Assembly (NCBI GenBank): GCA_963726245.1
Contig: CAVSBT010000007.1
Location: 1 to 56,860 of the forward strand
Direction: 5' to 3'
From: an uncultured Chloroflexia bacterium
GTDB taxonomy: Bacteria; Chloroflexota; Dehalococcoidia; DSTF01; JALHUB01
Length of the DNA stretch: 56,860 nt
Part shown: positions 53,435-55,140 of the stretch, piece by piece
How positions within the stretch are numbered: the first letter of the stretch is position 1
Layout: every line of letters starts with the position of its first letter
Program-made: the position numbers and the translations under genes
The notes under the pieces: generated by a model
The model's database searches: none
The model's input: only the letters and a program-made list of their open reading frames with translations
Told to the model about the DNA's origin: nothing

Positions 53435-53541
53435 GGCGTCATTCTAACATTCCCCCACCTCAGATTTCACAAACGGCGTCCACGGCAGTCTTATTAGTAG
53501 GACCAAGGCAACCGTAGCCAAGGGACGAAGGGAGGGAGCAG

Positions 53542-53919
53542 GTGTTTTCCATTCTTGACGACATCACCATCGGGACGGAGGCGGCGCTGCGCGAAGACGA
53601 AGTACAGCGCCTGCTGACGGAACGCGCGGCTCGGCGGCGCGAGAGCAGCCCCGACTCGAGAGCGTGGCGCTGGCGCGTCGAGCCGGGGAAAGAGGTGGAG
53701 TTCGATCACCTGCGGAGCTGGCTCCTCTCCGGTCTACCAGAGGGACCGAGGGAGACGGCAGCTTTCCCGCATCGCCAGAGAGAAGACCTCGCGACTTCCC
53801 GGCGGCCATCGCCGGTGCGCCTCGGCGCACGGCTGGCCGGCCGCGCCGCCATGAGGGCAGGGCGGCTGCTGCTACAATGGGGGGACGCGGCCGACGAAAC
53901 TGAGACGAGCGCGGCCTAG
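53542..53919 (+). CDS. Hypothetical protein, first gene of the ECF-ogt unit
   Basis: SD GGAGGGAG before GTG; ends 12 nt before the sigma factor. Confidence 0.55.
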   Translation: MFSILDDITIGTEAALREDEVQRLLTERAARRRESSPDSRAWRWRVEPGKEVEFDHLRSWLLSGLPEGPRETAAFPHRQREDLATSRRPSPVRLGARLAGRAAMRAGRLLLQWGDAADETETSAA

Positions 53920-53931
53920 GGGTAGGAGAAC

Positions 53932-54420
53932 GTGACGGCTCCCGCCTTCGAGACACTGCTGGACCGGCATCAGAGGGAAATCATGGGCTACATAGTGCGC
54001 AGCCTGGACGACCACGACCTGGCCCAGGACGTCTTCCAAGAGACCTTCCTTCGCGCCTTTCGGGCCTACAAGAGGCTCCCGGCGGACGCCAACCACCGCG
54101 CCTGGCTCTACAGGATCGCCTCCAACGCCTGCCACGACGCCCGACGCCAGCGCGCCCGCTCGCCGCTGCCCCTCTACGAGTCCGTGGCGGCGCCCGCCCG
54201 CTCCGACGGGACGATCCATGCCCTCGCGGGAGCCGTCGCGGCGTTCGTGGGCTCGCTGCCGGCGCGACAGCGGCAGGCCGTGGTCCTGCGCAAGTTCCAG
54301 GGCATGGACTACGACGAGATTGCCGCTGTTTTGGACTGCTCGCCGGAGGCGGCGAGGGCGAACGTATACCAGGGCCTGCGCAAGGTGCGCGCCCACTTCG
54401 CCGAGGTGGATCATGACTAA
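53932..54420 (+). CDS. ECF RNA polymerase sigma factor
   Basis: Region 2 AQDVFQETFLRAF..WLYRIASN; region 4 LPARQRQAVVL..YDEIAAVL. Confidence 0.93.
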   Translation: MTAPAFETLLDRHQREIMGYIVRSLDDHDLAQDVFQETFLRAFRAYKRLPADANHRAWLYRIASNACHDARRQRARSPLPLYESVAAPARSDGTIHALAGAVAAFVGSLPARQRQAVVLRKFQGMDYDEIAAVLDCSPEAARANVYQGLRKVRAHFAEVDHD

Positions 54421-55140
54421 GCGACCGCTGTTTCGAAGAAGAAGACCTGCTGGCTCTCCTGGCCGGTGACCAGTCGCCCGAAGAGTGGCGGGAGCACATG
54501 GAGGGTGCCTCGACTGCCGCCGCTGTTCTCGGCGCAGGAGCCGCTGCAGCGCGCCCTGGAGGAGCCCGCCAGCCAGCCCACCGACGCGCAGGTGAAGGCG
54601 GCCCGCGCCCGCCTGGAGGAGGCGCTGCGTAGCCCGAAGCCCACCGCCTACTACGACGTCTGGCGCGACACGCCCGTGGGACCCCTCTTCCTCGCCGTGT
54701 CGGAGCGCGGGCTGTGCGCCATCTCCTTCCGCAGCTCGCTGGACGATTTCCTGCGAGGCATGGAGCGGCGCGGCTTCCGGCCGGCGCACGGCCCCGAGCG
54801 GGTCCGGGAGGCGGTACAGCAGCTGCGGGACTACTTCGCCGGGCGGCGGCGCCGCTTCGACATGACGGTGGACCTGGCGGGCCAGACGCCCTTCCAGCGC
54901 CAGGTGCTGGAGGCGGCGGCCCAGGGTCCCGGCAGGCGCCGTGGCCAGCTACGGCGAGATCGCGCGGGCCATCGGCAGGCCCACGGCCACGCGGGCCGTC
55001 GGCGCCGCCCTGGGCCAGAACCCGGTGCCCATCGTCGTGCCCTGCCATCGCATCATCGGCAGCGACGGCGGCCTGCACGGCTACGGCGGCGGCCTGGACA
55101 TCAAGGAGAAGCTGCTGCGGCTGGAGGGCGCGCCGATTAA
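54413..55140 (+). CDS. ogt: Methylated-DNA--protein-cysteine methyltransferase with putative N-terminal ZAS zinc motif; multiple indels
   Basis: [43 protein letters not shown] overlaps the sigma 3' end. Confidence 0.85.

Follow-up and report, generated by a model that had tools for sequence, protein, structure and literature searches.

A candidate alkylation-responsive module in Dehalococcoidia: an ECF sigma factor gene overlapping the gene for an Ogt protein with a ZAS-like N-terminal domain

We examined a 56,860-nucleotide stretch of DNA, hereafter the window, which is contig C7 (CAVSBT010000007.1) of a metagenome-assembled genome (MAG) of an uncultured Dehalococcoidia bacterium (2.68 Mb in 46 contigs, 67.6% G+C, 82.8% complete and 6.3% contaminated). 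Near its right end, a gene for an extracytoplasmic function (ECF) sigma factor is followed directly by a gene, broken in the assembled sequence, that joins a small cysteine- and histidine-bearing N-terminal domain to a complete O6-alkylguanine repair protein of the Ogt family. An initial annotation had read this pair as an ECF sigma factor coupled to a cryptic zinc anti-sigma (ZAS)::Ogt fusion, a possible sensor of alkylation that works without Ada. The two genes, both on the forward strand, contain the following features.

53932..54420, forward strand: ECF (group 4) sigma factor gene, intact, 162 amino acids (Pfam Sigma70_r2 E 1.4e-14, Sigma70_r4_2 E 1.7e-13, Sigma70_ECF E 1.6e-06)
54413..54642, forward strand: putative ZAS-like anti-sigma N-terminal domain of the fusion (C-x21-H-x3-C-x2-C), cut by three single-base indels; assigned from the ligand pattern, remote homology to zf-HC2 and a complex model
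54667..54876, forward strand: Ogt N-terminal (ribonuclease-like) domain (Pfam Methyltransf_1N E 8.7e-09 on the window piece)
54899..55144, forward strand: Ogt C-terminal catalytic/DNA-binding domain with PCHR, stop codon TAG at 55142-55144 (PF01035 106 bits; DNA_binding_1 E 3.3e-27)
54419..54422, forward strand: indel 1, one base extra relative to intact orthologs; related-strain contigs of 4/4 metagenome runs are without that base
54500..54503, forward strand: indel 2, one base short; related-strain contigs are longer by one base in 3/4 runs, the fourth being without cover
54519..54525, forward strand: indel 3, one base short; related-strain contigs are longer by one base in 3/4 runs, the fourth being without cover
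54920..54938, forward strand: indel 4, one base extra, exact spot ambiguous; related-strain contigs of 4/4 runs are without the base at 54920

The sigma gene encodes region 2 and region 4 domains only within its 162 residues, which places the product among the ECF (group 4) sigma factors. Its nearest solved chains are likewise ECF sigma factors (6in7_B best, at E 2.2e-18), and it shares 81-82% identity with the ortholog at a related locus, L002. The initial annotation had the 3' end of an ECF sigma gene overlapping an ATG at 54413, and this holds: the sigma, confirmed by Pfam, ends with a TAA stop codon at 54418-54420, so that it overlaps the start of the fusion gene by 8 bases.

Intact versions of the pair were sought in 41 related genomes with the middle piece of the broken gene as query. 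Matches at E ≤ 0.001 were obtained in 21 genomes, and 7, the window's own genome included, matched at E ≤ 2.3e-34; six loci (L002-L007) were read for intact orthologs, and the weaker loci L008-L012 were left out. In each of the six, all from related Dehalococcoidia, the fusion is a single open frame of 241-251 amino acids in which C-x21-H-x3-C-x2-C is followed by Methyltransf_1N and then by DNA_binding_1 with PCHR. An ECF sigma gene stands directly upstream in all six, with overlapping stop and start codons. The position directly behind a sigma that had been expected of an anti-sigma factor is therefore found in 6/6 relatives, and the proposed search for ECF-fusion pairs in other genomes returned six with an intact fusion gene. 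Judging from the overlapping codons, the sigma and fusion genes are translationally coupled, and we infer that they are also co-transcribed.

In the window itself, the coding signal downstream of sigma moves among the three forward frames. Aligned by tblastn, the L002 protein meets the window in three pieces: residues 4-31 lie in frame 3 from position 54423, residues 38-174 follow in frame 1 (54523-54930, 79% identity), and residues 172-243, with PCHR intact, are in frame 2 (54923-55138, 94% identity). A short CLDCR stretch in frame 2 lies between these pieces. The N-terminus that had earlier been assembled by joining three frames, with its C-x21-H-x3-C-x2-C pattern, agrees closely with the contiguous N-termini of the intact orthologs. 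The pattern recurs in 27 of 27 family sequences, in which the ligands C6, H28, C32 and C35 are invariant, and PCHR, also claimed to be intact, is seen both in the window piece and in all 25 full-length family members; conservation of this degree exceeds what chance would produce.

In the C-terminal part, both Ogt domains score above their Pfam cut-offs in the four intact orthologs scanned, including DNA_binding_1, for which a check had been suggested, and also in the window pieces, which assigns this part to the Ogt/MGMT (6-O-methylguanine DNA methyltransferase) proteins. The Ogt part of an ortholog aligns over its full length with Mycobacterium tuberculosis OGT (E 1.1e-30; Foldseek E 9.6e-14, TM-score 0.82). 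In AlphaFold2 models, five helices are followed by the Ogt fold from residue 79 onwards, and the modelled linker between the anti-sigma helices and the Ogt N-terminal domain is ~6 residues long. Database names and precomputed domains for the family all read plain MGMT. The family is narrow, with 6 Dehalococcoidia/Chloroflexi MAG species in a species-genome collection, a count that depends on the patterns used in the scan. Taken at sequence level, these data support a real fusion of a ZAS-like N-terminal domain with a complete Ogt, and the Ogt part is predicted to be catalytically competent.

Before the function of the fusion is considered, the state of the window copy has to be judged. Three indel repairs had been thought sufficient to restore the gene, whereas DNA alignment with two intact orthologs calls for four single-base indels, with a net shift of zero. 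The four indels are absent from related-strain contigs of 4 metagenome runs, one of which is without cover at two of the sites; the comparison is with such contigs, not with reads of the source organism. The four frame-breaking changes inside 520 bases might be real, in which case the window copy would be a true pseudogene and the module would be in the course of being lost in this organism. The source organism itself was not met with in any public sequencing run (best share of words 0.24), which leaves room for this reading. G001, the only other genome of the genus (89% complete), gives no match to the fusion gene or to the conserved motif upstream of the operon, which is described below; this points the same way and also counts against a working module here. 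On the other side, the genome's only ftsH locus, at 42874-44700 in the same window, has its Peptidase_M41 domain alone spread over three frames and carries ~seven single-base indels, all of which show up in comparison with three relatives; ligA, too, is one base too long near 56820. Moreover, the pieces of the fusion gene are 79-94% identical to L002 and thus as well conserved as the intact sigma (81-82%), the indels add up to a net shift of zero, and the pieces are free of in-frame stops. Because a single-copy ftsH and ligA are broken alike in the same window, we regard the four indels as very probably assembly errors, and decay of the gene as quite improbable; the label "cryptic" is accordingly dropped.

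Two observations concern assembly quality more generally. The indel errors in this assembly, as evidenced by ftsH and ligA, are clustered yet scattered. In the relative represented by a single contig (G011:C1, locus L007), the sigma ortholog shifts frame once near residue 37, and that assembly may also carry indel errors.

Whether the N-terminal domain is an anti-sigma domain is the central question for function. The initial annotation had assigned it to ZAS/zf-HC2 from its ligands, and that assignment holds in part: the ligand pattern stands and a profile of the domain reaches bona fide zf-HC2 factors, while the Pfam cut-off for zf-HC2 is missed. In full-length orthologs, 0/4 match zf-HC2 (PF13490) even at E ≤ 1, and none of six isolated N-terminal domains attains the gathering cut-off of 22.2 bits, the two that score at all reaching 10.9 and 7.7 bits. 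Structure comparisons of the isolated domain are similarly weak. A Foldseek search returned nothing significant, with RslA at the top of the list and in 5 of 7 rows at E 4.3; in a VIA search over 48,161 chains, none reached Z 5, and RslA (Z 4.0), RsiW (3.8) and RskA (3.7), which are among its ten best, are level with unrelated helical proteins; a PDB profile search placed 3hug_B on top at E only 0.47. All of these results weigh against an anti-sigma identity, with the qualification that the lack of a significant fold match is usual for a small helical domain.

A different picture emerges from the family's own profile. Built from 6 sequences over 80 positions and run on 1.84 billion representative proteins, it found just 25 matches at E ≤ 1e-3, of which 23 were scanned with Pfam (P0008 and P0031 were left out). 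Five of the 23 are fragments of the fusion family, seven reach the zf-HC2 cut-off, one of them exactly, and two match zf-HC2 below it; the remainder belong to other families or to none. The seven proteins that pass were found at library-wide E values of 6e-7 to 7e-4, which indicates homology to accepted ZAS members. When the same profile was applied to 401 genomes sampled evenly from the phylum, it matched in three genomes besides the window's own and in no others, and each of these three matches is a conventional membrane ZAS anti-sigma factor whose gene directly follows an ECF sigma gene. By profile comparison, the N-terminal domain is remotely homologous to zf-HC2 anti-sigma factors. As part of the best explanation, its ~78 residues would form a zinc-binding class I anti-sigma domain of the ZAS type, in which the invariant Cys, His, Cys and Cys are putative zinc ligands. 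As an aside, the top non-family match of the profile (P0026, 397 amino acids, E 3.5e-13, below the zf-HC2 cut-off) contains four tandem modules resembling C..LLA.LAG..H...C..C.

Modelling of the complex, which had been suggested as a check, gave a model that passed its controls. The sigma (41-row alignment) was modelled together with fusion residues 1-82 (25 rows) and a zinc ion. Three runs gave an ipSAE of 0.79, 0.80 and 0.79, whereas the best of 3 controls scored 0.00; that mark is reached by 58 of 80 solved complexes and by 2 of 110 mismatched pairs. The partner has a predicted local distance difference test (pLDDT) value of 81 or more, and the runs have 89% or more of their contacts in common. 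These contacts involve sigma residues 6-43 (region 2) and 95-157 (region 4) and partner residues 9-18 and 41-72. Class I anti-sigma domains contact both region 2 and region 4 of their sigma factors. The model thus supports binding of the sigma by the N-terminal domain, subject to two reservations: it could pass through likeness to solved sigma/anti-sigma complexes, and its custom alignments and zinc ion set it apart from the set on which the score was calibrated.

These data also bear on another explanation, namely that the extension has no signal-dependent anti-sigma function. It would then be a constitutive tether, or else a zinc module that serves Ogt in its structure or in DNA binding, and the two genes would merely share an operon. 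The missed zf-HC2 cut-off and the non-significant fold matches of the isolated domain fit this explanation, as does the listing of ECF122, a sigma group paired with MGMT genes, as lacking a cognate anti-sigma factor in the portion of the literature consulted (PMC8999054). It accounts poorly for a complex model that scores 0.79 where the best of 3 controls scores 0.00 and places contacts on both sigma domains, for a profile that reaches Pfam-positive anti-sigma factors, and for a stop/start overlap kept in 6/6 relatives. We consider it improbable, and prefer an anti-sigma role for the N-terminal domain.

The proposed output of such a pair depends on what lies upstream of it, and the flanks of the two genes contain four further features.

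53465..53493, forward strand: conserved motif TTTCAC-N17-GTCTTA, candidate sigma-dependent promoter, aligned in all 7 loci, also where the flanks are unalignable
53542..53919, forward strand: small open reading frame (ORF) with a conserved core at 53671-53736, WRVEPGKE..F..LR.WLL
53870..53878, forward strand: TGCTACAAT, read from its conservation as a housekeeping-type extended -10 box; ~55 nt separate it from the start codon of sigma downstream
55144..55165, no strand assigned: GC-rich palindrome resembling repetitive extragenic palindromic (REP) elements, at the operon end, with two exact copies in the window and 12 in the genome

The motif upstream of the operon has the form TTTCAC-N17/18-GTCTTAC, with a 17-base spacer in the window and an 18-base spacer in the relatives; G006 has GTTCTAC in place of the second half and is thereby a variant with 2 mismatches. 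A -10 element containing GTC at an 18-base spacing fits ECF-type promoters. The exact motif occurs once in the window's own genome and once per genome in 6 of the 41 relatives, which are all of the fusion holders except G006; the other 35 relatives (G006 among them) and the reversed controls gave 0 matches. No further sites that would indicate a wider regulon were found in the own genome, nor, outside the operon, in the 41 relatives. With 2 mismatches allowed, one extra near-match appeared in each of 3 out of 5 genomes, and one reversed control matched too, so that the extra matches are treated as chance. At L042 and L043, the motif is kept though the sequence upstream of it looks like the 3' end of an ORF that runs in the same direction.

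That this motif is the sigma's own promoter is, to judge from sequence, a suggestion to which we give slightly less than even weight. Several points temper it. Since these very loci supplied the motif, its presence in them is by construction and only its uniqueness counts as a result; in the window, TTTCAC doubles as the -35 element of a minus-strand sigma-70-like promoter facing hisH; and the motif could equally be an operator. In addition, TGCTACAAT is kept in the window and in L002-L005, with a similar box further upstream in L006 and L007, and suggests a basal housekeeping promoter and hence partly constitutive expression; it was missed by a consensus scan because its -35 element is weak. 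The promoter facing hisH, the only one called by the scan, occupies 53441-53470 on the minus strand (GTGAAA, an 18-base spacer, and TAGAAT preceded by TG) and ends 7 bases before the hisH GTG start codon, which suggests a leaderless hisH transcript.

The small ORF that separates the motif from the sigma gene has its conserved core in 6 of 7 loci (a search of L005/L041 did not reveal it), and its pairwise differences by codon position, 76/67/154, show an excess at the third position. It has no Pfam match and no relative above 0.81 in the protein Atlas. The module consists of two genes, possibly three, and this ORF may be the third member.

At the other end of the operon, the scan called no terminator; the palindrome at 55144..55165 was not called as one because it lacks a T run, and Rfam gave no match anywhere in the window. 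The palindrome, GTAGGGGCG...CGCCCCTAC, is found at gene ends (38204-38225 and 55144-55165, with variants near 44889-44915 and 49853-49880). Its 22-mer occurs 12 times without mismatch in the genome, and the relatives G001, G007 and G023 have related copies.

Taken together, we propose a module with two translationally coupled genes, one for an ECF sigma factor and the other for a soluble anti-sigma factor whose C-terminal part is a complete Ogt. The module would combine inhibition at rest, release triggered by alkyl transfer and replenishment of itself; for this reading as a whole, we see the arguments for and against as evenly balanced. At rest, the fusion would hold the sigma inactive. Transfer of an alkyl group from O6-alkylguanine to the active-site cysteine of Ogt would then destabilise the protein, as published for other alkyltransferases, and the destabilised fusion would be unfolded or degraded, freeing the sigma. 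The free sigma would read its private promoter, TTTCAC-N17/18-GTCTTAC, upstream of its own operon, and sigma and Ogt would be made anew in proportion to the Ogt consumed, giving an adaptive response independent of Ada with a regulon of one operon.

The gene content of the genomes is compatible with such a scheme in one respect and less so in another. The independence from Ada that had been suggested fits, in that Ada_Zn_binding was found in 0/6 fusion-bearing genomes searched (the own genome and 5 relatives) and is absent from the fusion protein itself. The fusion is the only PF01035 match in its own genome (82.8% complete), in the single-contig G011 and in G023. A second, stand-alone Ogt is present in the remaining half (3/6) of the fusion-bearing genomes, which counts against the scheme. 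Alkylated alkyltransferases are described, in the portion of the source consulted, as destabilised via contact between their two domains and degraded in vivo (PMC4605297), and it is because of this reported destabilisation that we infer the step by which alkyl transfer would release the sigma. A stricter version, in which every O6-alkylguanine repaired destroys one Ogt and frees one sigma whose sole target is its own operon, so that the consumed repair protein would be replaced one for one with no Ada and no other regulon, is more doubtful, and we advance it tentatively.

The main rival places the sensor in the other half of the protein. RsrA-type ZAS factors sense thiol-reactive compounds, and the zinc site of the fusion could act in the same way, with oxidants or soft electrophiles, including direct SN2 (bimolecular nucleophilic substitution) methylating agents, attacking the zinc-bound thiolates and Ogt being cargo or a co-made output. 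The invariance of C6, H28, C32 and C35 in all 27 sequences and the homology of the domain to zf-HC2 anti-sigma factors agree with such a sensor. Many ZAS factors, however, are not redox sensors, and a zinc-thiolate sensor leaves unexplained why a complete Ogt, with PCHR in 25/25 full-length members, is attached through a linker of ~6 residues. The single target of the motif, the Ogt operon, likewise fits a loop for Ogt supply better than a general thiol-stress regulon. We therefore consider sensing at the zinc site unlikely, though less so than the absence of any anti-sigma function, and retain sensing through Ogt as the preferred reading.

Were sensing through Ogt correct, it would be of interest for several reasons. 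The adaptive response to alkylation in bacteria is known almost only via Ada, and the module would be a second, mechanistically different solution in which the irreversible consumption of the enzyme is the signal. It would also supply a function for sigma/MGMT pairs of the ECF122 type, which are listed without an anti-sigma factor. Made up of two proteins and one promoter, the module is compact, soluble and self-contained; it therefore lends itself to direct tests in a heterologous host and could find use as an orthogonal switch. Since O6-benzylguanine derivatives react with Ogt homologues, the sigma-fusion pair could also be usable as a transcription switch triggered by a small molecule.

How does the module relate to what has been described? 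No experimental study of such a sigma-linked fusion was found in the literature searched, a search that did not extend to the supplements of Casas-Pastor et al., which possibly detail ECF122. The nearest catalogued case is ECF122 itself, for which a passage in the review PMC8999054, citing Casas-Pastor et al. 2021, gives a Cellulomonas example, a 6-O-methylguanine DNA methyltransferase as the conserved neighbour, an "unknown mechanism" and a place among groups "without cognate anti-sigma factors". Neither ECF122 nor methylguanine comes up in the main text of the cited paper. Extended MGMT clusters of 250-320 amino acids also appear in the protein Atlas, in Chloroflexota, Thermomicrobiota, Vulcanimicrobiota, Methylomirabilota and Acidobacteriota, and are to be taken as leads only, as are zf-HC2 annotations on 16% of the members of one extended MGMT cluster and on 41% of a shorter (176 amino acids) Methylomirabilota cluster with Methyltransf_1N and zf-HC2, and Ada_Zn_binding in three other MGMT clusters, where roughly half of the members or more have it.

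The present loci (L002-L007 and the window) are like ECF122, as far as the passage describes it, in that an ECF sigma gene is conserved beside an MGMT/Ogt gene. They differ in that the example of the review is actinobacterial whereas this family is from Dehalococcoidia, and in that the present Ogt carries a ZAS-like domain modelled to bind the sigma. With the class I ZAS factors (RslA-SigL, 3HUG; RsiW-SigW, 5WUQ; RsrA-SigR), the fusion shares HxxxCxxC with an upstream Cys, a helical domain of ~75 residues, a gene directly after an ECF sigma gene and modelled contacts on sigma regions 2 and 4. Unlike them, it lies below the Pfam cut-off, has a spacing of 21 residues from the first ligand to the His, is soluble with no membrane segment, and carries a suicide DNA-repair enzyme, not a periplasmic or redox module, as its putative C-terminal sensor. 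The parallel with Ada of Escherichia coli is that irreversible methyl uptake from DNA would be turned into transcription of repair genes, its own included. Ada, in contrast, uses a Cys4-zinc methylphosphotriester domain for sensing and activates transcription by binding DNA, whereas the output proposed here is release of a sigma. From stand-alone Ogt/MGMT proteins such as M. tuberculosis OGT (4BHB/4WX9), with which it has in common the two-domain fold, PCHR, the DNA-binding helix-turn-helix region and 39-41% identity, the fusion is set apart by its extra N-terminal ~78 residues and by the translational coupling of its gene to a sigma gene. The pairing of sigma and MGMT genes is thus already catalogued, as far as the review describes ECF122, and what is new is an ECF/ZAS pair with a suicide repair enzyme as the putative anti-sigma sensor.

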